Positions 1 through 47,565 of a DNA stretch of 48,253 bases are shown one piece after another. Location of the stretch: IMG/VR virus record IMGVR_UViG_2531839665_000024; one strand, 5' to 3'. The notes under the pieces are model-generated. The model saw nothing but the letters and a program-made list of their open reading frames with translations. It did no database searches and was not told where the DNA came from. Each line of letters starts with the position of its first letter. Position 1 is the stretch's first letter. Made by a program: the position numbers and the translations under genes. The stretch is from a virus (Duplodnaviria; Heunggongvirae; Uroviricota; Caudoviricetes).

Positions 1-1164
1 TTACGCCTTCTTTATATCCTCCATAATTCCAGAGTGGGACATATTTGGGACATTATCACCAAAAATGTCGTCTATTTTCCTCGCATGCTCTGTCAAATGA
101 TTAGGCGCAAGGTGAGCATACCTACGAACCATTTCTATGGACTCCCATCCGCCCATTTCCTGAAGCACTGATAATGGGACGCCTGACTGAATCAGCCAGC
201 TTGCCCAGGTGTGTCTGAGGTCATGGAAACGGAAATCTTCAATTCCTGCACGACGACAAGCTGATAGCCATGATGTCTTGCTGTCGATGCGCATCTTCCT
301 GACCGCAGGCGTTGATGTTCCATCTGCTCGCTTAGCCGCCTTGGTATGTACAAACACCCATTTGTGATGCTTGCCTATTTGATCACGCAACACTTTACAG
401 GCGGTATCGTTCAGCGCCACACCAATGGCGCGGTTTGATTTGCTCTCTTCTGGATTCACCCAGGCAACTCGTCGCTGCATGTCGATTTGTTGCCATTCCA
501 GATTTATGATGTTCGACTTTCTCAGACCAGTTGCCAGCGCAAACTTGACGACAGATTTCAGTGGTTCGGGGCACTCATCAATAAGGCGTTTTGCTTCCTC
601 CTTTTCCAGCCATCTGACTCGCTTGTTTCTGACCGCTGGTATCTTGATGACAGGCGCTTTTTCCAGCCACTTCCAGTCGCGTTCTGCAGCACGGAGAATG
701 GCCTTTATCATGGCAAGATGCTTTGCCTTTGTCTGAGTTGATACTGGCTTTGGTTCATAAACAGGCGGTTCTTTACCTTTCCTGATGGCGGCCTGAACTT
801 TCTGTTTCCATATTTCTTTCGTCTTTCTGTTATGCATTCTGCTTACAGCAGAGTAAATCTTTGCCTCCGAGATATCTTTAAGCCTTATACCCTCAAAATG
901 TTCAAGCCAGAACTCAATCCGGCTTTTATCTGAATCGAGAGATTTTTTATCAGCTTTTTCCTCAAGCCATCTTAGGCAGGCCTCTTCAAAAGTGACATCA
1001 GGTAAATCCCCTAGCTTTTCTACTCGCCAGAGTTCTGCTTTTCGCTTGTCGTGCAACTCCTGAGCTTGCCGCTTGTCCTTTGTGCCAAGAGATTCCTTAA
1101 TTCGTTTCCCGCCCGGGAGCGAATACGAGGCATACCATATTTCATTTCTGCGGAAGAGTGACAT
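1..1164 (-). CDS. intD: Phage integrase, tyrosine recombinase (DLP12 IntD type)
   Basis: 387-aa ORF; C-terminal HDLRHTWAS...RRYAHL motif region typical of tyrosine recombinases; matches my recollection of DLP12 IntD; sits at prophage end next to xis. Confidence 0.9.
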
Positions 1165-4964: not shown

Positions 4965-5010
4965 ATAATAGCTATTGCTATTGGTGATATCAATACTTAT
5001 TGCTATTAGT
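4965..5010. promoter_or_regulatory. Putative OL operator region (repeated TTGCTATT motifs, AATAGCTATT palindrome)
   Basis: TTGCTATT at 4975-4982 and 5000-5007 plus palindrome 4967-4976; the same 8-mer recurs twice in the cI-cro intergenic region. Confidence 0.35.
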
Positions 5011-5127
5011 TGATGTGTTTTGATATTAAATGTTTGATAGCAAAAAGAATTAATTTTGTGACTTGCATCGCATAGCGATAACTGAAGTGAGGTCGTGGTG
5101 GTTTTTTGAACGGTGTGTGATGAGGGG

Positions 5128-5161
5128 AGGGCAAAAGAAAACCCGGCACGGTGGCCGGGTT
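5128..5161 (-). terminator. Rho-independent terminator closing the cI-distal operon
   Basis: Minus-strand hairpin CCCGGC-N6-GCCGGG (plus 5142-5159) followed by a U-run (TTTTCTTTTG), immediately after the stop of the 149-aa membrane protein gene. Confidence 0.55.
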
Positions 5162-5609
5162 ATTGTTCTTGATTGATCTTATCGAAGATATCATGACTTA
5201 ATTTTTGCACATTTAGGAAATTTACTATGAAGAAGACAATTGCGTAAATTATTAATGTGAAAAAAAGTATTGAAGGAGAGAATTTTAGTATCAGGGATTT
5301 AAATTCAAAGCTGAACTCATACTCTTTTAAATATTCACTAAGCACAAGGCATAAAGTAGAAAGAGTGAAAAAGCGCAAAAAAGAATTTCGTATAGATACC
5401 AATTCTTTTCTGATAACTTTAACATAATTAATGTTTTTAATGCCAGACATGTTAAAAGTTACAATCAACCCTAACCCGATAGAAAACATTATGCCACAGA
5501 CAGAATACAATGTAGAAATCAAAAACTGATCAGGCCTCCAAGCTAAAAATGATGGAAGCCCGATAGTAATTATCAGAACAATTAGCAAGCTAGCTATTTG
5601 TCGCTTCAT
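5160..5609 (-). CDS. Small integral membrane protein, about four predicted TM helices (RexB-position, RexB-like topology)
   Basis: 149-aa ORF in about 30 percent GC DNA; hydrophobic segments IASLLIVLIITIGLPSFLAW, ISTLYSVCGIMFSIGLGLIVTF, FLRFFTLSTLCLVL, ILFFTLIIYAIVFFIVNFL; start overlaps the upstream gene by 20 nt. Confidence 0.6.
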   Translation of the reverse strand: MKRQIASLLIVLIITIGLPSFLAWRPDQFLISTLYSVCGIMFSIGLGLIVTFNMSGIKNINYVKVIRKELVSIRNSFLRFFTLSTLCLVLSEYLKEYEFSFEFKSLILKFSPSILFFTLIIYAIVFFIVNFLNVQKLSHDIFDKINQEQ

Positions 5610-6615
5610 TTTCTATCTCTTTTAAATATCTGCTCATTTCTTGAAATACCTCTTGTTCTACAAGCTTGCCTGAATCAGTAACCTCAATTGTTACATTTTT
5701 AATCTTAAGAAGATCTTTGCCTTTTATTTCTGAGCGACCATCACTTCGTTTGAATACAATGTTATCAAGATCACTAACAGGTTTTAATGTTGCACTTAAT
5801 AGTTTAGCATAACTATCTTCATCCATGCTCCTTGGTTTACTAAACTTTATCAACAGTTCAGCTGATACTATTTGATTGTCAATTATTTCTTTTAGATTTG
5901 GGAAATTTGGTACAGCTGATTTCAATGCATTTAAAACAGCGTGTGAAAGTTTTATTTTTGTATTTTTTTCTTCAATTTCTGATGGTGGCGATTTCATATC
6001 GGATGACTGAACCAATACTTCTTTTGGAAGAGGAGATGGATCTCTCACAGAAATTGATTTTATATCCTTAAGCTGAACTTTATTACCTTTAACAATCATC
6101 GGTGTGAATTCAATCATTTCATTCCCAACCAGCCAGCGTATATAAGTTTGTAGAGATGATATAGTCCTATTCATCTGCAGATTGGTAACTAAATAATTAT
6201 CACTTATACAGAAGTAGAAATGGTTTTTGCATACGACCTCTGTATCAATGTCAGCATTATGGAGATCACTAATTGTAAATGATTTTTTGTTAAAAAGTTG
6301 ATCGGGAATCTTTTCAACTCCCTCGCTTGGGGCAATTCTAACCATTGTACAAAAAACAGAATTACTGTTGTCTGATGTCTGATAGAACGATATCAAATCT
6401 TGTTCTTGCCTAAGATCGTCAGAGTTTAAAACCATGCAACGTTCTTTTACGGTAGATGAGTCAACTAGCTTTTGTAATAAAAGCTTTTTCGCGGGGCTAG
6501 ATTTTTCTGTTAGATTATTGTTTTCTATCTTAAAAGCTCTTAATTTCACTTGTTTAGGTTTATTATGTTTTTTATTTACAGAGCTGCTATTTTCACTATT
6601 CATAGAATCAACCAT
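5590..6615 (-). CDS. Uncharacterised 341-aa soluble protein (RexA-position); candidate sensor/effector of a phage-exclusion system
   Basis: 1026-nt ORF in AT-rich DNA (a long ORF is statistically unlikely by chance in AT-rich sequence); directly downstream of cI on the same strand; no recognisable family. Confidence 0.6.
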   Translation of the reverse strand: MVDSMNSENSSSVNKKHNKPKQVKLRAFKIENNNLTEKSSPAKKLLLQKLVDSSTVKERCMVLNSDDLRQEQDLISFYQTSDNSNSVFCTMVRIAPSEGVEKIPDQLFNKKSFTISDLHNADIDTEVVCKNHFYFCISDNYLVTNLQMNRTISSLQTYIRWLVGNEMIEFTPMIVKGNKVQLKDIKSISVRDPSPLPKEVLVQSSDMKSPPSEIEEKNTKIKLSHAVLNALKSAVPNFPNLKEIIDNQIVSAELLIKFSKPRSMDEDSYAKLLSATLKPVSDLDNIVFKRSDGRSEIKGKDLLKIKNVTIEVTDSGKLVEQEVFQEMSRYLKEIENEATNS

Positions 6616-6708
6616 TGATTATGTGTAGTTTTATAATGTAGTAAGCATCAAGTATTTTTATAATTTGAGTTTGGTTTATCACACAAACATTTAAACCAAC
6701 TTGCTAAG

Positions 6709-7437
6709 TCATCCATGCTTTCTGTATGTCTGCGGCATGCTCCCAATAACTTTCCCGAAGATAAACACCCGGTTCATCTCGTCTTTCTCGATCGGGTCCC
6801 ACGGTGAGTAGCTCTTGTTATCAGAGATAACCAGCAGCTTATCCTTCATCATTTGCAGGCGCTTTACATGGGCTGTGTCGTCATACAGAAACGCATAGAT
6901 ACCATCACCGTCGAAAGATTTAACCGTGATATCAACGAACAGAAGATCACCTGGTTCGATCGTTCCTGACATGCTGTCACCACGCACGTTAATGATGCGG
7001 ATATTTTCCGCCTTCCTGCCATCGAACATGTGACGAGCATCGTCAAACGAGTACTCAACCGAGCGTAGAACTTCTACAAACTCACGGTTGATTACACCCG
7101 GCCCGGCACTGACTTCTATATCAAGAACGTCAATCTTGAAGTATTTTGAATGGCTGACAGCAGGCTTCCCTGATTGTTGACCGTCATTTCTCATCGGGCC
7201 TATGCCTGATGAGAGCCATTCTGTTCGAACACCCAATGCATTAGCTATTTCAACAATTTTTGTTGAGCCGCGCGCGTTGCCGCTTGTCAGTCTCCAGATT
7301 GTGGGTTGAGCTACGCCAGACGCCTTTGCAAGAGCGCCTTGAGACATTCCAGATTGTTCCATCGCTAGGTTTAAGCGATCAGCAAGAGTTTCTTTTTTCA
7401 TAAGTTTTAATTTATACGCTTGCGTATTGATGGTCAA
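6709..7437 (-). CDS. cI: CI-like prophage repressor with N-terminal HTH and C-terminal S24 (LexA-like) autopeptidase domain
   Basis: HTH (MSQGALAKASGVAQPTIWRL), Ala-Gly cleavage-site candidate (VSAGPG), GDSM serine and downstream lysine of S24 fold; annotated ORF begins at TTG, true start could be the internal ATG 36 nt downstream. Confidence 0.85.
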   Translation of the reverse strand: MTINTQAYKLKLMKKETLADRLNLAMEQSGMSQGALAKASGVAQPTIWRLTSGNARGSTKIVEIANALGVRTEWLSSGIGPMRNDGQQSGKPAVSHSKYFKIDVLDIEVSAGPGVINREFVEVLRSVEYSFDDARHMFDGRKAENIRIINVRGDSMSGTIEPGDLLFVDITVKSFDGDGIYAFLYDDTAHVKRLQMMKDKLLVISDNKSYSPWDPIEKDEMNRVFIFGKVIGSMPQTYRKHG

Positions 7438-9325: not shown

Positions 9326-10023
9326 AAAACATCGCCGCACAGATGATTAACTTTGACCGTGAGCAGATGCGTCGGATCGCCAACAACATGCCGGAACAGT
9401 ACGACGAAAAGCCGCAGGTACAGCAGGTAGCGCAGATAATCAACGGTGTATTCAGCCAGTTACTGGCAACTTTCCCGGCGAGCCTGGCTAATCGTGACCA
9501 GAACGAACTGAACGAAATCCGCCGCCAGTGGGTTCTGGCTTTCCGGGAAAACGGGATCACCACGATGGAACAGGTGAGCGCCGGAATGCGTGTTGCCCGT
9601 CGGCAGAATAGACCATTTCTGCCATCACCCGGGCAGTTTGTTGCATGGTGCCGGGAAGAAGCATCCGTTACCGCCGGGCTGCCAAACGTCAGCGAGCTGG
9701 TTGATATGGTTTACGAGTATTGCCGGAAGCGTGGTCTGTATCCGGATGCAGAGTCTTATCCGTGGAAATCAAACGCGCACTACTGGCTGGTTACCAACCT
9801 GTATCAGAACATGCGGGCCAATGCGTTGACTGACGCGGAATTACGGCGCAAGGCTGCCGATGAACTGTCCTGTATGACCGCGCGAATTAACCGTGGTGAG
9901 GCGATACCTGAACCAGTAAAACAACTTCCTGTCATGGGCGGTAGACCTCTAAATCGTGCACAGGCTCTGGCGAAGATCGCAGAAATCAAAGCTAAGTTCG
10001 GACTGAAAGGAGCAAGTGTATGA
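9322..10023 (+). CDS. P: Replication protein P (DnaB helicase loader)
   Basis: 233-aa translation essentially matches lambda P (MKNIAAQMINFDREQMRRIANNMPEQYDEKPQVQQVAQIINGVFSQLL...). Confidence 0.95.
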   Translation: MKNIAAQMINFDREQMRRIANNMPEQYDEKPQVQQVAQIINGVFSQLLATFPASLANRDQNELNEIRRQWVLAFRENGITTMEQVSAGMRVARRQNRPFLPSPGQFVAWCREEASVTAGLPNVSELVDMVYEYCRKRGLYPDAESYPWKSNAHYWLVTNLYQNMRANALTDAELRRKAADELSCMTARINRGEAIPEPVKQLPVMGGRPLNRAQALAKIAEIKAKFGLKGASV

Positions 10024-10322
10024 CGGGCAAAGAGGCAATTATTCATTACCTGGGGACGCATAAGAGCTTCTGTGCACAGGACGTTGCCGCGGTAACAGGC
10101 GCAACCGTAACCAGCATAAATCAGGCTGCGGCTAAAATGGCGCGGGCAGGAATCCTGGTCGTTGATGGTAAGGTCTGGCGAACGGTGTATTACCGGTTCG
10201 CTACCAGAGAAGAACGGGAAGGAAAGGTGAGCACGAATCTGATTTTTAAGGAGTGTCGCCAGAGTGCCGCGATGAAACGGGTACTGAGGGTATATAAAAG
10301 AACATCAATGGGAACACAATGA
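10020..10322 (+). CDS. ren: Ren protein
   Basis: MTGKEAIIHYLGTHKSFCAQDVAAVTGATVTSINQAAAKMARAGILVVDGKVWRTVYYRFATREEREGK... matches lambda Ren. Confidence 0.9.
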   Translation: MTGKEAIIHYLGTHKSFCAQDVAAVTGATVTSINQAAAKMARAGILVVDGKVWRTVYYRFATREEREGKVSTNLIFKECRQSAAMKRVLRVYKRTSMGTQ

Positions 10323-10389
10323 TGAAACAGGTGAGTTGAGTTCAAACTGTAGTACAATTCTCTCCAGTTTGAACAGGAAAGAATATGCT

Positions 10390-10722
10390 ATGAACCCTTA
10401 TATTTATCTTGGTGGTGCAATACTTGCAGAGGTCATTGGTACAACCTTAATGAAGTTTTCAGAAGGTTTTACACGGTTATGGCCATCTGTTGGTACAATT
10501 ATTTGTTATTGTGCATCATTCTGGTTATTAGCTCAGACGCTGGCTTATATTCCTACAGGGATTGCTTATGCTATCTGGTCAGGAGTCGGTATTGTCCTGA
10601 TTAGCTTACTGTCATGGGGATTTTTCGGCCAACGGCTGGACCTGCCAGCCATTATAGGCATGATGTTGATTTGTGCCGGTGTGTTGGTTATTAATTTATT
10701 GTCACGAAGCACACCACATTAA
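10390..10722 (+). CDS. emrE: EmrE small multidrug resistance (SMR) efflux transporter
   Basis: 110-aa four-TM protein MNPYIYLGGAILAEVIGTTLMKFSEGFTRLWPSVG... with conserved Glu14; matches E. coli EmrE, a known DLP12 cargo gene. Confidence 0.9.
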   Translation: MNPYIYLGGAILAEVIGTTLMKFSEGFTRLWPSVGTIICYCASFWLLAQTLAYIPTGIAYAIWSGVGIVLISLLSWGFFGQRLDLPAIIGMMLICAGVLVINLLSRSTPH

Positions 10723-10752
10723 AATAATTTGTTTCTAAACGACTAAAATATG

Positions 10753-10793
10753 GAGGCTCTTATATTTATATGAGCCTCGTTTTATGCTTTTTG
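10753..10793 (+). terminator. Rho-independent terminator downstream of emrE
   Basis: Hairpin GAGGCTC-N12-GAGCCTC followed by a T-rich tract (GTTTTATGCTTTTTG). Confidence 0.6.
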
Positions 10794-10976
10794 TTAATGT
10801 CTTTATTTTTTATGTATTCTTTTGTGCTTTCAAGATTATGGCGTAAGAAAATTGCAATACGATTATTGTTGTATATTCAAGATAATGTGACCTTAATTGT
10901 CTTTTTAAATAAAAATTAAACAAAAATTATATCCCACCACTAAGGTTTATAAAAGCATACGTTAGCAGGTGTCACC

Positions 10977-12503
10977 ATGAAAAAAGCCATAGCATATATG
11001 CGATTTTCATCACCAGGTCAGATGTCTGGCGACTCATTAAACCGACAGAGAAGACTTATTGCTGAATGGTTAAAGGTAAATAGTGATTATTATCTTGATA
11101 CCATAACATATGAAGATTTAGGATTAAGTGCATTCAAAGGAAAGCATGCACAATCAGGAGCTTTTTCGGAATTTTTAGATGCTATAGAGCATGGTTATAT
11201 ATTGCCAGGAACTACATTGTTAGTTGAAAGTCTGGACAGACTTTCAAGAGAAAAAGTCGGTGAAGCGATTGAACGTCTGAAATTGATTTTGAATCACGGT
11301 ATTGATGTTATAACTCTTTGCGACAATACAGTCTATAATATTGACTCTTTGAATGAGCCATATTCATTAATAAAAGCCATACTTATAGCACAAAGGGCAA
11401 ATGAAGAAAGCGAGATAAAGTCAAGTCGGGTTAAATTATCATGGAAGAAAAAACGGCAGGATGCACTGGAATCAGGTACGATTATGACGGCGTCTTGTCC
11501 GAGATGGCTCTCCTTAGATGACAAAAGAACGGCTTTTGTTCCAGACCCCGACAGGGTGAAAACTATTGAGCTAATTTTTAAACTCAGGATGGAAAGGCGC
11601 TCATTGAATGCAATAGCCAAGTATTTAAATGATCATGCTGTAAAGAATTTCTCAGGAAAAGAAAGTGCATGGGGACCTTCTGTAATTGAAAAATTATTAG
11701 CGAATAAAGCTCTGATAGGTATATGCGTACCTTCATATCGTGCAAGAGGGAAAGGGATAAGTGAAATCGCTGGCTATTATCCCAGAGTCATATCAGATGA
11801 TTTGTTTTACGCTGTACAGGAAATTCGGTTGGCACCTTTTGGTATTAGCAATAGTAGCAAGAATCCTATGCTAATAAATCTACTTCGAACAGTTATGAAG
11901 TGTGAGGCTTGTGGTAATACCATGATTGTTCATGCGGTATCTGGAAGTTTGCATGGCTATTATGTTTGTCCGATGAGAAGATTACATCGATGTGACAGGC
12001 CATCAATAAAAAGAGATTTGGTTGATTATAATATCATTAATGAATTGCTTTTTAATTGTAGCAAAATTCAACCAGTTGAAAACAAGAAAGATGCTAATGA
12101 AACTTTAGAGTTAAAAATTATTGAGCTTCAGATGAAAATTAATAATTTAATCGTTGCATTGTCTGTCGCGCCTGAAGTTACCGCTATAGCAGAGAAAATA
12201 AGACTATTAGATAAGGAATTACGAAGGGCTTCGGTATCATTGAAAACTTTGAAGAGTAAAGGTGTAAATTCATTCAGTGATTTTTATGCTATTGACTTAA
12301 CCAGTAAAAATGGACGAGAGTTATGCCGTACACTTGCCTATAAAACATTCGAAAAAATCATAATTAATACGGATAATAAAACCTGTGATATCTATTTTAT
12401 GAATGGCATTGTTTTTAAACACTATCCTTTAATGAAAGTAATATCCGCCCAGCAGGCGATAAGTGCTCTCAAATATATGGTTGATGGTGAGATTTATTTC
12501 TAA
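10977..12503 (+). CDS. ybcK: Large serine recombinase family protein
   Basis: 508-aa ORF with N-terminal resolvase-like catalytic domain (AIAYMRFSSPGQ...SLNRQ) and Cys-rich recombinase/zinc-ribbon region; matches DLP12 YbcK from memory; low-GC gene. Confidence 0.8.
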   Translation: MKKAIAYMRFSSPGQMSGDSLNRQRRLIAEWLKVNSDYYLDTITYEDLGLSAFKGKHAQSGAFSEFLDAIEHGYILPGTTLLVESLDRLSREKVGEAIERLKLILNHGIDVITLCDNTVYNIDSLNEPYSLIKAILIAQRANEESEIKSSRVKLSWKKKRQDALESGTIMTASCPRWLSLDDKRTAFVPDPDRVKTIELIFKLRMERRSLNAIAKYLNDHAVKNFSGKESAWGPSVIEKLLANKALIGICVPSYRARGKGISEIAGYYPRVISDDLFYAVQEIRLAPFGISNSSKNPMLINLLRTVMKCEACGNTMIVHAVSGSLHGYYVCPMRRLHRCDRPSIKRDLVDYNIINELLFNCSKIQPVENKKDANETLELKIIELQMKINNLIVALSVAPEVTAIAEKIRLLDKELRRASVSLKTLKSKGVNSFSDFYAIDLTSKNGRELCRTLAYKTFEKIIINTDNKTCDIYFMNGIVFKHYPLMKVISAQQAISALKYMVDGEIYF

Positions 12504-12701
12504 ATAATGATCTCGGATTTTAAGTTATGCTATGGTGATAAAGTGCAAGACAGAATTAATTATCTTTGACGAAACTTAATGGGTAATTACTTTGTTTGCT
12601 CCCACAAGCGAGTTTTGTACGGCTGTATTGGGGTAGTAAATGAGCTATACAATCTTAATCATTTGTTAGGTGAGAACTCTTGGTCGCAGATTCAAATACT
12701 G

Positions 12702-12751
12702 AAAATACGTGACAAATTATTATGAGCAAAATGGTGTATGTCACGTATTTT
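12702..12751. promoter_or_regulatory. Perfect 13-bp inverted repeat (AAAATACGTGACA ... TGTCACGTATTTT) upstream of ybcL
   Basis: Arms at 12702-12714 and 12739-12751 with 24-nt spacer; function unknown. Confidence 0.3.
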
Positions 12752-12967
12752 GAATGGTAGGTTAAAAAATAACACCGACTTTCGTAGGTATTACTAATAA
12801 TAAAGCAGAGTTTTTAGATAGTATCAATGTGCTTTGTGTATATTGTGGCAAATAATTGGGTTGGGGGTACAATTGTGATTGCTTTTGCATGAACATTGCG
12901 CCTTTATGCATAATGAGATAAAGGAATATCAAATAAAATAACGATAGGTCATAACAAAGAGGTTTTT

Positions 12968-13519
12968 ATGAAAACACTTATCGTTTCAACTGTATTGGCA
13001 TTCATAACATTTTCTGCGCAGGCTGCAGCATTTCAGGTCACTAGTAATGAAATAAAAACAGGAGAGCAACTTACAACGTCTCATGTCTTTTCTGGATTTG
13101 GGTGTGAAGGTGGTAATACATCGCCCTCATTAACCTGGTCTGGTGTTCCTGAAGGTACCAAAAGCTTTGCCGTAACTGTATATGATCCAGATGCACCTAC
13201 AGGCAGTGGTTGGTGGCATTGGACTGTTGTTAATATTCCAGCAACAGTAACATATTTGCCCGTTGATGCAGGGAGACGTGATGGAACAAAACTGCCGACT
13301 GGTGCTGTTCAAGGCCGAAATGATTTTGGCTATGCTGGGTTTGGTGGCGCATGTCCTCCTAAAGGAGATAAACCACATCATTACCAGTTTAAAGTATGGG
13401 CTCTAAAAACTGAAAAGATTCCTGTAGATTCTAACTCCAGCGGAGCGTTAGTTGGTTATATGCTTAATGCTAATAAAATCGCAACCGCTGAGATAACACC
13501 AGTTTATGAGATAAAGTAG
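12968..13519 (+). CDS. ybcL: Periplasmic PEBP/RKIP-family protein with signal peptide
   Basis: 183-aa ORF with N-terminal signal peptide MKTLIVSTVLAFITFSAQA; matches DLP12 YbcL from memory. Confidence 0.85.
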   Translation: MKTLIVSTVLAFITFSAQAAAFQVTSNEIKTGEQLTTSHVFSGFGCEGGNTSPSLTWSGVPEGTKSFAVTVYDPDAPTGSGWWHWTVVNIPATVTYLPVDAGRRDGTKLPTGAVQGRNDFGYAGFGGACPPKGDKPHHYQFKVWALKTEKIPVDSNSSGALVGYMLNANKIATAEITPVYEIK

Positions 13520-13528
13520 GGTGAGAGT

Positions 13529-14326
13529 ATGCTGGCAAGAGGTAAGACTAACTTAAAGATCGAAGAAATACGGATGCATAAACATCATGAGATTCATAGG
13601 GTTAAGCCTCTTATGCCAGCTTTGTGTCGTATCCGTCAGGGAAAGAAAGTTATCAATTGGGAGACGCATACTTTAACTGTTGATAATAATCAAATAATAT
13701 TATTTCCTTGTGGTTATGAATTTTATATTGAGAATTATCCTGAAGCAGGGCTTTATCTTGCAGAAATGCTTTACTTACCCATTGATTTAATTGAGAGTTT
13801 CCAAAAACTTTATACGGTAACTGATCAAATACGTAACAAAACAAGTTTCTTTTTACCTCAGAATCCTGAGTTAATATATTGTTGGGAGCAACTAAAAACA
13901 TCTGTTTCCCGAGGCTTCTCAACTAAAATTCAGGAGCACTTAGCAATGGGCGTTCTACTTTCGTTAGGAGTGAATCATGTTAATCATTTACTTTTATCAT
14001 ATAGTAAACAATCATTGATAAGTCGTTGTTATAACCTGCTGCTATCCGAACCCGGCACAAAATGGACAGCAAACAAGGTTGCTCGATATCTCTACATTTC
14101 TGTTTCTACATTACATCGCCGTCTAGCAAGCGAGGGGGTAAGTTTCCAAAGTATACTGGACGATGTGAGGTTAAATAATGCGTTGTCTGCTATACAAACG
14201 ACGGTAAAACCTATAAGCGAGATTGCCAGAGAAAATGGTTATAAGTGTCCTTCTCGTTTTACTGAAAGATTTCATAATCGTTTTAATATAACACCAAGAG
14301 AGATAAGAAAAGCTTCCAGAGAGTAA
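13529..14326 (+). CDS. ybcM: AraC-family transcriptional regulator
   Basis: 265-aa ORF with C-terminal AraC-type HTH ([20 protein letters not shown]...); start may be an internal Met. Confidence 0.8.
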
Positions 14327-14390
14327 AAGTGTTTTAAGAAGGAGCAATTCTATCGATTTTGATTTTGGGAAATCAACACGGCATAATTAT

Positions 14391-14419
14391 GTCACCGGAG
14401 CCTGAACAACTCCGGTGAC
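14391..14419 (+). other. Perfect 10-bp stem hairpin (GTCACCGGAG-N9-CTCCGGTGAC), possible weak terminator or protein-binding site between ybcM and ybcN
   Basis: Seen directly; no strong U-run follows. Confidence 0.3.
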
Positions 14420-14540
14420 TTCTGCGCTAAACGGGGACGTTTATGCGCACATACAATCCAAACTCTCTTCTCCCTTCACAGATGCAGAAATGCACCTGCA
14501 ATTCTTTGCATCTAGCGTTTGACCTCTGCGGAGGTGAAGC

Positions 14541-14996
14541 GTGAACCTCTCACAAGACGGCATCAAATTACATCGCGGCAACTTCACCGCTATCGGTCGG
14601 CAGATCCAGCCTTATCTGGAGGAGGGCAAATGCTTTCGCATGGTGCTTAAACCGTGGCGTGAGAAACGCAGTCTTTCCCAGAATGCACTCAGCCACATGT
14701 GGTACAGCGAAATCAGTGAATACCTCATCAGCAGGGGTAAAACGTTCGCCACTCCAGCTTGGGTAAAAGATGCTCTCAAACACACATATCTCGGTTATGA
14801 AACCAAAGACCTGGTTGATGTCGTAACCGGTGATATCACCACTATCCAGTCGTTACGCCATACCTCCGATCTTGATACCGGAGAGATGTATGTCTTCCTG
14901 TGTAAGGTTGAAGCCTGGGCGGTGAATATTGGCTGCCACCTGACTATTCCGCAGAGCTGCGAGTTCCAGCTGCTCCGCGACAAGCAGGAGGCGTAA
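14541..14996 (+). CDS. ybcN: NinB/Orf-family recombination protein
   Basis: 151-aa ORF (GTG start) in nin-region position upstream of ninE; matches DLP12 YbcN from memory. Confidence 0.8.
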
Positions 14997-15166
14997 TGGC
15001 TACACCGCTTATTCGTGTCATGAACGGACACATCTACAGAGTATCAAATCGTCGTAAGCGTAAGCCTGAGCTGAAGCCATCCGAAATACCAACACTGCTC
15101 GGATATACCGCTAGCCTGGTTGATAAAAAATGGTTGCGACTGGCAGCAAGGAGGAATCATGGCTGA
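14996..15166 (+). CDS. ninE: NinE-like small protein
   Basis: 56-codon [40 protein letters not shown]... starting at a TAATG overlap with the ybcN stop; below the ORF-track length cutoff. Confidence 0.65.
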   Translation: MATPLIRVMNGHIYRVSNRRKRKPELKPSEIPTLLGYTASLVDKKWLRLAARRNHG

Positions 15167-15449
15167 TTTGAGAAAAGCAGCGCGTGGTCGGGAATGCCAG
15201 GTAAGAATCCCTGGCGTATGTAATGGCAATTCTGAAACGTCTGTACTGGCACATATCCGGCTGGCTGGATTGTGCGGTACCGGTATCAAACCGCCAGACC
15301 TGATTGCCACCATTGCATGTTCTGCCTGCCACGACGAAATCGACCGCCGCACACATTTTGTCGATGCTGCATATGCAAAAGAATGCGCGCTGGAAGGTAT
15401 GGCGAGAACACAGGTTATCTGGCTGAAAGAGGGGGTTATTAAGGCGTGA
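15159..15449 (+). CDS. ybcO: YbcO-like nin-region protein (Cys-rich, putative nuclease)
   Basis: ORF from internal ATG ([24 protein letters not shown]...) overlapping the ninE end; Cys/His-rich. Confidence 0.65.
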
Positions 15450-15808: not shown

Positions 15809-15951
15809 TGTTTGAGTTTTATATGGCAGAACTTCTTCGCCACCGCTGGGGGCATCTGCGCTTATATCGTTTCCCCGGTTCTGTTTTGACCGATTACCGA
15901 ATACTGAAGAATTACGCCAAAACCCTGACAGGAGGTAAGCGTACAGCCTGA
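15805..15951 (+). CDS. ylcG: YlcG-like small protein with C-terminus altered by the IS insertion
   Basis: [46 protein letters not shown] then runs into the IS left end (GKRTA stop); the uninterrupted sequence reconstructed from the target duplication would read ...KTLTGAGV. Confidence 0.55.
15927..15934. repeat. Left copy of 8-bp target site duplication GACAGGAG
   Basis: Identical octamer occurs at 19327-19334 immediately outside the opposite IS end. Confidence 0.8.
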
Positions 15952-16005
15952 ACCGTCTGGTCAGAATCTGACGAATTAGACAAAGTGGTGTCCACCAAAT
16001 AAGTA

Positions 16006-16407
16006 GTGGGAACCAAAGTGTCAGATATGCAGAAAAATGTGACTCCCGGCAGGCGAAAAGGCTGCCCTAATTATCCTCCCGAATTTAAACAGCAGCTCGT
16101 TGCTGCCTCCTGTGAACCCGGGATATCCATCTCAAAACTTGCTCTTGAAAATGGCATTAACGCCAATCTGTTGTTCAAATGGCGACAACAATGGCGCGAG
16201 GGAAAGCTGCTATTACCTTCTTCAGAGAGCCCCCAGCTACTTCCTGTGACTCTCGATGCAGCTGCCGAACAGCCAGAATCGCTCGCAGAGGACCCGGAAA
16301 CCCTCAGTATCAGCTGTGAGGTAACGTTCCGGCACGGGACGCTCCGCTTCAATGGCAATGTCAGCGAAAAGCTCCTGACTCTGCTGATACAGGAACTGAA
16401 GCGATGA
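16006..16407 (+). CDS. tnpA: IS66-family accessory protein TnpA (orf1)
   Basis: 133-aa ORF, first gene of IS66-type operon; start codon uncertain (GTG or downstream ATG). Confidence 0.75.
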   Translation: MGTKVSDMQKNVTPGRRKGCPNYPPEFKQQLVAASCEPGISISKLALENGINANLLFKWRQQWREGKLLLPSSESPQLLPVTLDAAAEQPESLAEDPETLSISCEVTFRHGTLRFNGNVSEKLLTLLIQELKR

Positions 16408-16751
16408 TCCCGTTACCTTCCGGGACCAAAATTTGGCTGGTTGCCGGTATCACCGATATGAGAAATGGCTTCAACGGCCTGGCTGCGAAAGTACAGACGG
16501 CGCTGAAAGACGATCCCATGTCCGGCCATGTTTTCATTTTCCGGGGCCGCAGCGGCAGTCAGGTTAAACTGCTGTGGTCCACCGGTGACGGGCTGTGCCT
16601 CCTGACCAAACGGCTGGAGCGTGGGCGCTTCGCCTGGCCGTCAGCCCGTGATGGCAAAGTGTTCCTTACGCAGGCGCAGCTGGCGATGCTGCTGGAAGGT
16701 ATCGACTGGCGACAGCCTAAGCGGCTGCTGACCTCCCTGACCATGCTGTAA
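16404..16751 (+). CDS. tnpB: IS66-family TnpB (orf2)
   Basis: 115-aa ORF with ATGA overlap to tnpA; conserved IS66 Orf2-like sequence ([22 protein letters not shown]...). Confidence 0.8.
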
Positions 16752-16800
16752 ATCTCTTTATCCTGGTTGTCACAGAATAAGCCCGGTAAAATACGGGCTT

Positions 16801-18339
16801 ATGAACGACATCTCTTCTGACGACATCTTCCTGCTGAAACAGCGCCTGGCCGAACAGGAAGCGCTGATCCACGCCCTGCAGGAAAAGCTGAGCAACCGGG
16901 AGCGCGAAATAGACCATCTGCAGGCGCAGCTGGATAAACTCCGCCGGATGAACTTCGGCAGTCGTTCCGAAAAAGTCTCCCGCCGTATCGCACAAATGGA
17001 AGCCGATCTGAACCGGCTTCAGAAAGAGAGCGATACGCTGACTGGTAGGGTGTATGACCCGGCAGTACAGCGTCCGTTGCGTCAGACCCGCACCCGTAAG
17101 CCGTTCCCTGAATCACTACCCCGTGACGAAAAGCGACTGTTGCCTGCGGCGCCGTGCTGCCCGAACTGCGGCGGTTCACTGAGCTATCTGGGCGAGGATA
17201 CCGCCGAACAGCTGGAGTTGATGCGTAGCGCCTTCCGGGTTATCCGGACGGTACGGGAAAAACATGCCTGTACTCAGTGCGATGCCATCGTGCAGGCACC
17301 TGCACCTTCGCGGCCCATCGAGCGGGGTATCGCCGGACCGGGGCTGCTGGCCCGCGTGCTGACCTCGAAGTATGCAGAGCACACCCCGCTGTATCGCCAG
17401 TCAGAAATATACGGCCGGCAAGGTGTGGAGCTGAGGCGTTCACTGCTGTCGGGCTGGGTGGATGCATGCTGCCGGCTGCTGTCTCCGCTGGAAGAGGCGC
17501 TTCATGGCTATGTCATGACTGACGGCAAACTCCATGCCGATGATACCCCGGTCCAGGTACTGCTGCCGGGTAATAAGAAGACGAAGACCGGGCGGTTGTG
17601 GGCGTATGTTCGTGATGACCGCAATGCAGGGTCAGCGTTGGCACCTGCAGTGTGGTTCGCTTACAGCCCGGACAGAAAAGGCATCCATCCGCAGACTCAT
17701 CTTGCCTGCTTCAGCGGTGTGCTGCAAGCGGATGCGTACGCCGGGTTCAACGAGCTGTATCGCAATGGTGGGATAACGGAAGCTGCCTGCTGGGCTCATG
17801 CCCGCCGAAAGATCCACGATGTGCACGTCCGCATCCCGTCAGCACTGACGGAAGAAGCCCTGGAGCAGATCGGTCAGTTGTACGCCATAGAGGCGGATAT
17901 AAGGGGAATGCCGGCAGAGCAGCGGCTTGCTGAACGTCAGCGAAAAACGAAACCGTTGTTGAAATCCCTGGAAAGCTGGTTGCGTGAAAAGATGAAGACC
18001 CTGTCGCGACACTCAGAGTTGGCGAAGGCGTTCGCGTACGCACTTAACCAGTGGCCGGCACTGACGTACTATGCGAACGATGGCTGGGTGGAAATCGACA
18101 ACAACATCGCTGAAAATGCCCTGCGGGCGGTCAGTCTGGGTCGTAAAAACTTCCTGTTCTTCGGCTCTGATCATGGTGGTGAGCGGGGAGCGCTACTGTA
18201 CAGCCTGATCGGGACGTGCAAACTGAATGACGTGGATCCAGAAAGCTACCTTCGCCATGTGCTTGGCGTCATAGCAGACTGGCCGGTCAACCGGGTCAGC
18301 GAACTGCTTCCGTGGCGCATAGCACTGCCAGCTGAATAA
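16801..18339 (+). CDS. tnpC: IS66-family transposase TnpC (DDE)
   Basis: 512-aa ORF with N-terminal leucine-zipper-like region, CxxC...CxxC zinc motif and DDE-type core, typical IS66 transposase. Confidence 0.85.
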
Positions 18340-18422
18340 CACATCCCCGTCAATACGGCCCTCGCTGTACGCTTACGGTATTTCTGACTCATGGCCGTTT
18401 TTATAATGCGGCCAGGTGTTTT

Positions 18423-46990: not shown

Positions 46991-47565
46991 TGGCATTCAG
47001 AATGAGTGAACAACCACGGACCATAAAAATTTATAATCTGCTGGCCGGAACTAATGAATTTATTGGTGAAGGTGACGCATATATTCCGCCTCATACAGGT
47101 CTGCCAGCAAACAGTACCGATATTGCACCACCAGATATTCCTGCTGGCTTTGTGGCTGTTTTCAACAGTGATGAGGCATCGTGGCATCTCGTTGAAGATC
47201 ATCGGGGTAAAACGGTTTATGACGTGGCTTCCGGCGACGCGTTATTTATTTCTGAACTCGGTCCGTTACCGAAAAATGTTACCTGGTTATCGCCGGAAGG
47301 GGAGTTTCAGAAGTGGAACGGCACAGCCTGGGTGAAGGATACGGAAGCAGAAAAACTGTTCCGGATCCGGGAGGCGGAAGAAACAAAAAACAACCTGATG
47401 CAGGTAGCCAGTGAGCATATTGCGCCGCTTCAGGATGCTGCAGATCTGGAAATTGCAACGGAGGAAGAAATCTCGTTGCTGGAAGCATGGAAAAAGTATC
47501 GGGTATTGCTGAACCGTGTTGATACGTCAACTGCACAGGATATTGAATGGCCAGCACTGCCGTAG
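46990..47565 (+). CDS. tfa: Tail fibre assembly protein
   Basis: 191-aa ORF immediately after stf (TAATG overlap); matches Tfa family. Confidence 0.9.

Follow-up and report, generated by a model that had tools for sequence, protein, structure and literature searches.

Is the AT-rich stretch of about 4 kb between the genes ren and ybcN of a lambdoid prophage a mobile element nested in the phage genome, or was it put together from parts that are gained and lost independently of one another? The question is raised here by a viral sequence of 48,253 nucleotides (IMG/VR record IMGVR_UViG_2531839665_000024), the whole of which is called the window below. The window is a DLP12-family lambdoid prophage. 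An initial annotation had proposed that the block, which contains the gene ybcK of a large serine recombinase (LSR), arrived as, or still is, a separately mobilisable integrative element, or alternatively that ybcK mediates an uncharacterised site-specific rearrangement. A comparison with related prophages shows that the island is a patchwork of separately exchanged cargo modules and not one insertion. Taken overall, the locus is very probably a mosaic cargo slot between ren and ninB (ybcN) of a DLP12-family lambdoid prophage, with ybcK as a selected phage LSR. The island itself is not news because the emrE-ybcK-ybcL-ybcM region is the already known DLP12 segment of Escherichia coli K-12, and because emrE is among the best-studied small efflux pumps.

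Limits and Composition of the Island

The AT-rich character of the block between ren and ybcN was borne out. Profiling of the G+C (GC) content gave 36.3% for positions 10323-14356, uniformly low over the block, compared with about 51% on both flanks (50.6% for O-P-ren and 51.4% for ybcN-rusA) and 50.7% for the whole window. Comparison with related prophages places the variable interval at about 10283/10323 to 14356, so that the limits of 10330-14340 given in the initial annotation are essentially right. The genes it had named, i.e., emrE, ybcK (LSR of 508 amino acids), ybcL (PEBP family), and ybcM (AraC family), are all present by Pfam matches. Together with ylcJ, which was not in its gene list, five plus-strand genes lie between ren and ybcN. 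The slot and its borders comprise the following features:

10020-10322, plus strand: ren, an open reading frame (ORF) that matching genomes annotate as 'protein ren'; the conserved backbone on the left of the slot ends with this gene
10390-10722, plus strand: emrE, SMR efflux pump (Pfam Multi_Drug_Res PF00893, E 2e-35; PHROG 1395, category 'moron')
10752-10783, plus strand: hairpin GGAGGCTC-N12-GAGCCTC followed by GTTTT, read by eye; overlaps the start of ylcJ
10770-10919, plus strand: ylcJ, hydrophobic small protein of 49 amino acids (Pfam PF23688 YlcJ, E 2e-35)
10977-12503, plus strand: ybcK, LSR of 508 amino acids (Pfam Resolvase, Recombinase, and Zn_ribbon_recom)
12504-12580, plus strand: diverged tail 3' of ybcK, still homologous across cargo classes; the mosaic joints begin here
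12545-12812, plus strand: 268-bp segment, only in the full-island (ybcL) class
12702-12751, no strand assigned: perfect 13-nt inverted repeat AAAATACGTGACA-N24-TGTCACGTATTTT, 199 bp 3' of ybcK
12968-13519, plus strand: ybcL, PEBP-family protein (Pfam PF01161, PBP/PEBP, E 3e-42)
13529-14326, plus strand: ybcM, AraC-family regulator (Pfam HTH_18 and HTH_AraC)
14357-14540, plus strand: conserved 185-bp 'link' 5' of ybcN; right border of the slot
14541-14996, plus strand: ybcN (NinB-like), an ORF annotated as ybcN in all relatives; first backbone gene right of the slot

A Slot With Exchangeable Contents

Region 9800-15200 was used for a coverage search against 5426 complete E. coli genomes, and examples of each class were inspected and aligned to the window. 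In addition, 80 E. coli provirus contigs with ybcK were sampled from IMG/VR. At least seven different contents were found between ren/P and ybcN in related prophages, all of which regain homology to the window at 14357:

emrE-ylcJ-ybcK-ybcL-ybcM, the form of the window (found in 669 genomes at a query coverage of 80% or more)
emrE-ylcJ-ybcK running straight into the ybcN leader (O157:H7)
emrE-ylcJ-ybcK plus a fragment of P22AR-C and one hypothetical gene
emrE-ylcJ-ybcK plus an alpha/beta hydrolase gene in the opposite orientation
an internal deletion, emrE'-'ybcK (O104:H4)
a YajG-like lipoprotein gene and a hypothetical gene, without emrE or ybcK
a HEPN-containing gene set, without emrE or ybcK

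In the variants without emrE or ybcK, homology to the window stops at 10282 (L008) or 10033 (L009). The link at the right border is kept in all slot variants, as seen in the multiple alignment, and also in a prophage remnant beside fliE (described below), where it extends up to the ybcN start codon. It contains a promoter-like TTGATT-17-CATAAT, a hairpin (GTCACCGGAG..CTCCGGTGAC), and a ylcH-like ORF of 33 codons that runs into ybcN. In E. coli N5D43, part of the link occurs a second time, ahead of some of the cargo in the slot (L009, 2475-2603), and such a duplicated link could be a substrate for cargo exchange via homologous recombination.

The provirus contigs allow a closer look at the joints. 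Directly upstream of ybcK, emrE-ylcJ was found in 74 of the 74 contigs that reach far enough. The DNA from ybcK to the link falls into 11 classes of 319 to 3189 bp, and those other than ybcL-ybcM account for over half of the sampled ybcK-positive proviruses. These other classes share about 66 to 420 bp after ybcK before they diverge. The ybcL-ybcM class of the window shares just a diverged tail of about 75 bp after ybcK with them, and the right ends of the cargo classes, next to the link, have nothing in common. The variability per alignment column is 0.12-0.19 in 12504-12580, compared with mostly 0.00-0.05 inside ybcK. No single element boundary can be given because the right edge of the ybcK segment varies with the comparator: it lies at about 12544-12580 against other ybcK-positive prophages and at 12812 against the fliE remnant. 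A common breakpoint at 12544 was considered as a site-specific crossover and rejected, as homology decays gradually in the multiple alignment and the class joints are staggered. Such staggered joints speak for phage mosaicism and not for crossover at a single attachment (att) site.

Two properties of a discrete element were looked for and are lacking. The block is not one unit with constant boundaries, as there are prophages with emrE-ybcK but no ybcL-ybcM, copies of emrE-ybcL-ybcM that lack ybcK, and slots in which neither is found. Nor does it have a recombinase gene at its edge beside hybrid att sites or repeats, since ybcK is internal, with emrE-ylcJ to its left and cargo to its right.

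The Remnant Beside fliE

A further copy of emrE-ybcL-ybcM, without ybcK, is located between fliE and yedK (L001/L002 8001-11858; E. coli p11B and NC101). In about 2700 genomes the best match to the region fell in the 90-95% identity band, and every inspected one was this fliE copy, which is apparently present in about half of the complete E. coli genomes. It is colinear with 10314-10729, 12813-14543, and (in NC101) 19716-21423 of the window at 90-92% identity (emrE 92%, ybcL about 90%), the last of these segments, which follows the Q-like antiterminator gene, being the region of the nmpC-like porin. Only emrE, ybcL, ybcM, the link, and the nmpC-like porin are retained; ylcJ-ybcK has been lost, with ylcJ lying within the missing segment, and so has everything from ybcN through Q. 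By this colinearity, the fliE copy looks like a decayed and domesticated sister prophage of which only the cargo genes remain. It was also observed that ybcM accompanies ybcL in both contexts, the phage slot and the remnant.

The remnant bears on the earlier statement that no gene of the island has a phage function. For ybcK this is doubtful, as the gene was lost together with the phage genes while the cargo stayed, from which we infer that ybcK serves the phage. The genes emrE, ybcL, and ybcM are phage cargo whose evolutionary context is now clearer, with about half of E. coli keeping them beside fliE.

YbcK Is a Conserved Large Serine Recombinase

YbcK contains Resolvase (PF00239, E 5.5e-19), Recombinase (PF07508, E 2e-14), and zinc ribbon (PF13408, E 8e-8) domains, and by this architecture it is a member of the LSR (serine integrase) family. 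Missing catalytic residues would have spoken against the recombinase assignment of the initial annotation, and all of them are present on alignment: Y7, R9, S11, Q15, D87, R88, R91, and E144 are invariant (32 full-length relatives and 18 N-terminal domains), and the zinc-ribbon cysteines C309, C312, C331, and C339 are nearly invariant in the YbcK family. A search of the PDB with the single YbcK sequence gave no matches, and a family profile was required to find the solved structures 9dxd (3e-24), 4kis (6e-17), and 3bvp (1e-5). With this profile, the YxRxSS..Q and LDRLSR motifs align with those of the TP901-1 integrase catalytic domain (3bvp). The profile also matches SprA of SPbeta (positions 143-481), A118 Int (positions 189-491), and phiC31 Int.

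The gene is intact in 79 of the 80 provirus copies. Among 50 alleles, for which dS reaches up to 0.2, the Nei-Gojobori ratio of nonsynonymous to synonymous divergence (dN/dS) is about 0.05-0.08. Judged by this ratio, ybcK is under strong purifying selection and is thus not a relic. It is plausible, as the initial annotation had suggested as its second option, that YbcK mediates an uncharacterised site-specific recombination, and nothing ties such an activity to the flanks of the island itself. None of the papers searched assigns a recombination function to ybcK. In K-12 ybcK mutants, the excision of an unrelated island was unaffected (PMC5426353).

Relatives of YbcK and Their Genomic Positions

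At least 11 isolated Escherichia phages carry ybcK. Phage 4A7 encodes a tyrosine Int and Xis next to a fragment of icd, and its genome also contains the order ren-emrE-ylcJ-ybcK-esterase-ybcN. In other lambdoid prophages, relatives of YbcK occupy the same slot, i.e., after the replication genes and before NinG/Q:

Atlantibacter sp. RC6 (L019): 60% identity, C5 methylase gene before the LSR
Lambdoid contig (L180): 59% identity, SIR2 gene before the LSR
Pantoea dispersa (L018): 42% identity, in a prophage with its own tyrosine integrase
Ca. Pantoea alvi (L034): 48% identity, inverted, between P and a P fragment

A second location was found when the loci of further relatives were read with 10-kb flanks. 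Relatives with 43-59% identity lie at or near a prophage end, downstream of the tail-fibre assembly gene, in Atlantibacter (beside ssrA), Yersinia, Erwinia, Ewingella, and Pantoea. These tail-end relatives were considered as the sole integrase of their prophages, a role that the occurrence at three different Ewingella host loci argues against.

A third situation is seen in E. coli 22AR0750, where yecE is split by a defective prophage of 11.3 kb (L179 19766-31100) whose edge gene encodes a relative with 35% identity. The junction between host and element lies 71 bp upstream of the LSR ATG. Between the attB that was reconstructed and intact yecE, the identity is 100%. Among 5424 genomes this site is uninterrupted in 5139 and interrupted in about 285. 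The relative thus appears likely to be the true integrase of the yecE element. The element was reached through the Shigella relative L036, whose use in a search for E. coli paralogues gave mostly IS600 matches and one that led to yecE. Its opposite edge carries a small resolvase/invertase, and no tyrosine integrase is annotated in it.

Relatives with 37-39% identity in five genera have an apparent junction about 60 bp upstream of the gene, as read by eye. They form a subgroup of 518-541 amino acids (L029-L035; Mixta, Serratia, Rahnella, Erwinia, and Klebsiella) that is apparently inserted in a conserved host gene, with a Pin-like small serine recombinase 2-4 kb downstream and no phage genes nearby in the marker panel. 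In Citrobacter koseri (L181 8145-11530), a relative with 50% identity is found beside a faint Shufflon_N match and TraD, pilin-like, and MobA/MobL genes, a context that points to a conjugative or mobilisable element and not to a phage. In L034 (9352-12859) and L180 (9673-13249), the LSR block lies between a fragment and a full copy of the neighbouring gene (P and DUF1367, respectively), a footprint that could stem from the insertion of a circle by a single crossover or from unequal recombination between phages.

These locations bring up the alternative of a minimal LSR element that mobilises itself and consists of ybcK and about 65 bp of upstream DNA, in some cases also of a small ORF downstream. 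It would have been inserted in the cargo slots of temperate phages (nin slot or tail-fibre end) and have become fixed in the E. coli lineage. The unit conserved between phages is indeed just the gene: the tail-end (L010) and nin-slot (L019) copies of Atlantibacter share only the part from -68 to the stop codon, at 76% nucleotide identity, and the common part of Ewingella L016 and L021/L022 only reaches from -62 to the end of an ORF of 67 amino acids. Moreover, these left boundaries coincide with the junction of the yecE element (-71) and the inferred junctions of L029-L035 (near -60), and the partial duplicates of a neighbouring gene in L034 and L180 flank the LSR blocks. We nevertheless consider this alternative unlikely. 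About -65 is also where the gene's own promoter would start, so that an ordinary moron unit explains the boundary equally well; the comparison of L019 with L180 gives another boundary (-113), and the comparison with the fliE remnant places the left edge at -247. In 1400 E. coli genomes the gene has a single fixed location despite dS values of up to 0.2, with at most two copies per genome, and a purely selfish element would hardly be expected to stay in place under such strong purifying selection. For the same class of enzymes a broader generalisation can be formulated, which we regard as similarly doubtful: YbcK-type LSRs would be a separate class of orphan recombinases borne by phages, encoded by single-gene modules of 1.6-2 kb whose att site precedes the start codon by about 65 bp. 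These modules would home into the cargo slots of Enterobacterales temperate phages (nin slot or tail-fibre end) and be kept because the carrier phage gains a second site-specific recombination activity from them. If this were true, the activity might serve integration at another site or the acquisition of neighbouring cargo.

Occurrence of ybcK in E. coli and Candidate att Sites

Among the 5426 complete E. coli genomes, the ybcK module was counted in 1400, the emrE-ylcJ-ybcK junction in 1402, and the ren-emrE junction in 1413, and no genome has more than two copies of ybcK. In none of these genomes was ybcK seen outside the ren-emrE context, and it was not found on plasmid-sized records, as those matches in the plasmid collection that include ybcK come from records of chromosome size (1.3 and 4.9 Mb). 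Nothing varies upstream of ybcK in E. coli. A repeat finder and gapped alignment returned only short, chance-level matches as direct or inverted repeats flanking either the island or ybcK, and no att-like sites were seen beside the island or ybcK. An inverted match between the 3' end of emrE and 12708-12722 was rejected, as it showed no extension on gapped alignment. In a variability profile of 62 sequences, no conserved non-coding block near ybcK stood out, and a survey of palindromes near 21 YbcK relatives revealed nothing consistent.

The proposal that the whole island from emrE to ybcM is, or arrived as, one nested integrative element with YbcK as its integrase can draw on the uniformly low GC content of the block, on the intact LSR inside it, and on the integrase position of YbcK family members at the edges of integrated elements. 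It is nonetheless very improbable: the modules are found separately in hundreds to thousands of genomes, the boundaries depend on the comparator, flanking repeats or att-like sites are missing, ybcK is internal instead of at an edge, and the block never occurs at another site. The initial annotation had itself stated that its proposal would fall if comparative genomics showed the island not to be a discrete insertion, and independent modules with varying boundaries are what the comparison shows. The claim of a nested mobile element should not be propagated.

The inverted repeat at 12702-12751 was examined as a candidate att site. A site of 50 bp with 13-nt arms and a 24-nt spacer has the typical geometry of an LSR attP. 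The repeat starts 199 bp after ybcK and is one of two perfect repeats of its kind in the 48-kb window, and it could hence be read as the attP of YbcK, which would provide the full-island phage with a complete second integration module. We give this reading very little credence. The repeat is found only in the ybcL-ybcM cargo class and is missing from the other classes, which make up over half of the sampled ybcK-positive proviruses, and YbcK is equally conserved throughout the sample. The 268-bp segment around it, which neither the other ybcK-positive classes nor the fliE remnant contain, is present in a single copy in each of 675 genomes, and neither the segment nor the repeat is split in any of them. 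Furthermore, the att junction in relatives lies upstream of the gene and not downstream, and the repeat as RNA folds into a stable, terminator-like hairpin (-18.9 kcal/mol, z -3.2) between runs of A and T. As a general attP of YbcK the repeat was rejected on account of its confinement to the ybcL-ybcM class and of never being split; with low confidence, a terminator or insulator of the ybcL module is more likely than an attP.

The other perfect inverted repeat with 13-nt arms, AAGGAAACGACAG-N25-CTGTCGTTTCCTT at 24037-24087, is located just upstream of a nohD-like small terminase gene and lies possibly within the cos region.

Proposed Workings of the Slot and of YbcK

The reading that we prefer, a mosaic cargo slot with ybcK as a selected phage LSR, would work as follows. 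The island consists of two or more independently assorting modules, namely emrE-ylcJ-ybcK (about 10323 to 12544-12580) and ybcL-ybcM with the upstream 268 bp (12545-14356). These would have been joined by ordinary recombination between related phages via the conserved backbone, namely the 3' end of ren at the left border and the 185-bp link in front of ybcN at the right one. As host-useful cargo (morons), emrE, ybcL, and ybcM would have been retained when the sister prophage beside fliE decayed. In contrast to these, ybcK would be a phage gene. It encodes an intact LSR from a family of mobile-element integrases and is maintained by strong purifying selection in lambda-like phages integrating via their own tyrosine integrase. 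A Rho-dependent terminator has been reported upstream of ybcK, in its leader (PMC4150792). It would hold ybcK low in the lysogen, and after infection or induction the N-antiterminated rightward transcription would read through into ybcK. Acting in trans, YbcK would then recombine att sites outside the island in a conservative, site-specific reaction, most likely in the role of an auxiliary or second integrase.

Several points weigh against this proposal. The N-mediated read-through is deduced from the gene order and the published terminator, and the role of second integrase is likewise a deduction. A split or inverted region, as expected from local att use, occurs in no E. coli genome, and no prophage with ybcK at its edge was found among the 5426 genomes. 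The always-linked DNA at 10723-11000 contains no attP-like inverted repeat, although weakly symmetric att sites would escape such a search. Three Ewingella prophages carry the same LSR module at three different host loci, which argues against these relatives setting the integration site. Finally, the sole reported phenotypes of ybcK are indirect and concern sabinene tolerance upon overexpression or knock-out (PMC7181518).

That ybcK is instead an inert relic of a former integrase without present function is the least credible explanation, since the lack of a known target, the silencing of ybcK by Rho in K-12 (PMC4150792), and its loss without apparent cost from the fliE remnant and O104:H4 are opposed by intact copies in 79 of 80 proviruses, the dN/dS of about 0.05-0.08, the retention of all catalytic and zinc-binding residues, and the presence of ybcK in viable phages.

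In K-12, ybcK is one of 16 listed site-specific recombinases, and it is both selected and phage-linked. The discovery of its substrate would fill a small gap in the K-12 annotation. It could also supply genome engineering with a useful tool, namely a serine integrase of Gram-negative origin whose att pair is defined.

Comparison With Known Systems

One of the closest known systems is the moron slot in the nin region of lambda (from ren to ninB, removed by nin deletions), which has the same map position as the island. Like other lambdoid moron slots, the island is made up of AT-rich genes that have no part in phage growth, with conserved backbone genes on either side; related phages differ in what fills the slot, and the joints at the conserved flanks are sharp. 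Among E. coli prophages, the alternatives include YajG-like, HEPN, P22AR-C, and esterase genes, and the relatives from other genera have SIR2 or methylase genes at this position. The slot differs from such systems in that it holds a full-length LSR under purifying selection and not a typical lysogenic-conversion gene, and in that relatives of YbcK occupy the same slot in other genera.

With the characterised phage LSRs, i.e., SprA, A118 Int, phiC31 Int, and TP901-1 Int, YbcK shares the three-domain architecture, the catalytic motif, and the zinc ribbon. However, the similarity is too low for detection with a single sequence, and only the family profile finds these enzymes. Furthermore, YbcK is not located beside a prophage end or a recognisable attP, its host phage already has a tyrosine Int and Xis, and no recombination directionality factor or att sites are known for it. 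The LSR of the yecE defective prophage of E. coli 22AR0750 belongs to the same family and has the same length as YbcK, at 35% identity; there, the LSR gene lies at the edge, its target gene has been split, and the annotation shows no tyrosine integrase, none of which applies in the window.

In IS607 and in Tn4451/Tn5397 (TnpX/TndX), a serine recombinase gene and a short adjacent site can be the entire mobile unit. The LSR module of about 1.6-2.0 kb that is conserved between phages may resemble the IS607 family and the TnpX/TndX elements in idea. IS607 enzymes belong to the small serine recombinases, and their domains are arranged in another order. In E. coli, ybcK differs from elements of the IS607 and TnpX type by showing neither multi-copy spread nor a circular form nor consistent ends.

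Individual Genes of the Island

In phage contexts, emrE is always found directly left of ylcJ-ybcK. The hairpin at 10752-10783 is a possible terminator of emrE, which the terminator scan missed because its loop exceeds 8 nt. The small gene ylcJ is listed, with its sequence, in a table of short-ORF annotations (PMC6001520). The translation of YbcL starts with a hydrophobic, signal-like stretch. The PADLOC defence-system libraries gave no match for any island protein, Rfam matched no RNA family inside the island, and the count of promoter-like and terminator-like matches in the island was no higher than in shuffled sequence.

Prophage Backbone and Other Features of the Window

Along the window, a tyrosine integrase is followed by a cI-like repressor, the replication genes O and P, and then the region under study:

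1-1164, minus strand: tyrosine integrase (DLP12; Pfam Phage_integrase, E 5e-47), which opens the window
6709-7437, minus strand: cI-like repressor

Region 9800-15200 is 100% identical to E. coli C5, in which the corresponding prophage adjoins tRNA-Arg (argU), with intD adjacent. K-12 genomes match the window at 99.7% in 10560-11160 and at 99.6% in 12545-12812, the only two segments compared. The NinB match of ybcN is weak (22.3 bits), just under the Pfam cut-off of 23.8 bits.

A second low-GC block (34.7%) is located at 5001-7000, just beside the cI-like repressor and roughly at the position of lambda rexAB. It contains two minus-strand ORFs, 5160-5609 and 5590-6615, that encode 149 and 341 amino acids without a Pfam, PADLOC, or PHROG match and are possibly an uncharacterised exclusion or defence pair. 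At the corresponding position, phage 4A7 has an ASCH-domain gene and a hypothetical gene.

After rusA and before the Q-like antiterminator gene lies an IS66-family element (15935-18376) with imperfect terminal inverted repeats of 22 nt, an HTH_Tnp_1 ORF, a TnpB_IS66 ORF, and an ORF of 512 amino acids that is presumably the transposase. The otherwise identical region of E. coli C5 is without this element. Near the right end of the window, the Rfam RNA family IS009 matches 47333-47531 with 220.9 bits, which is over the gathering score.

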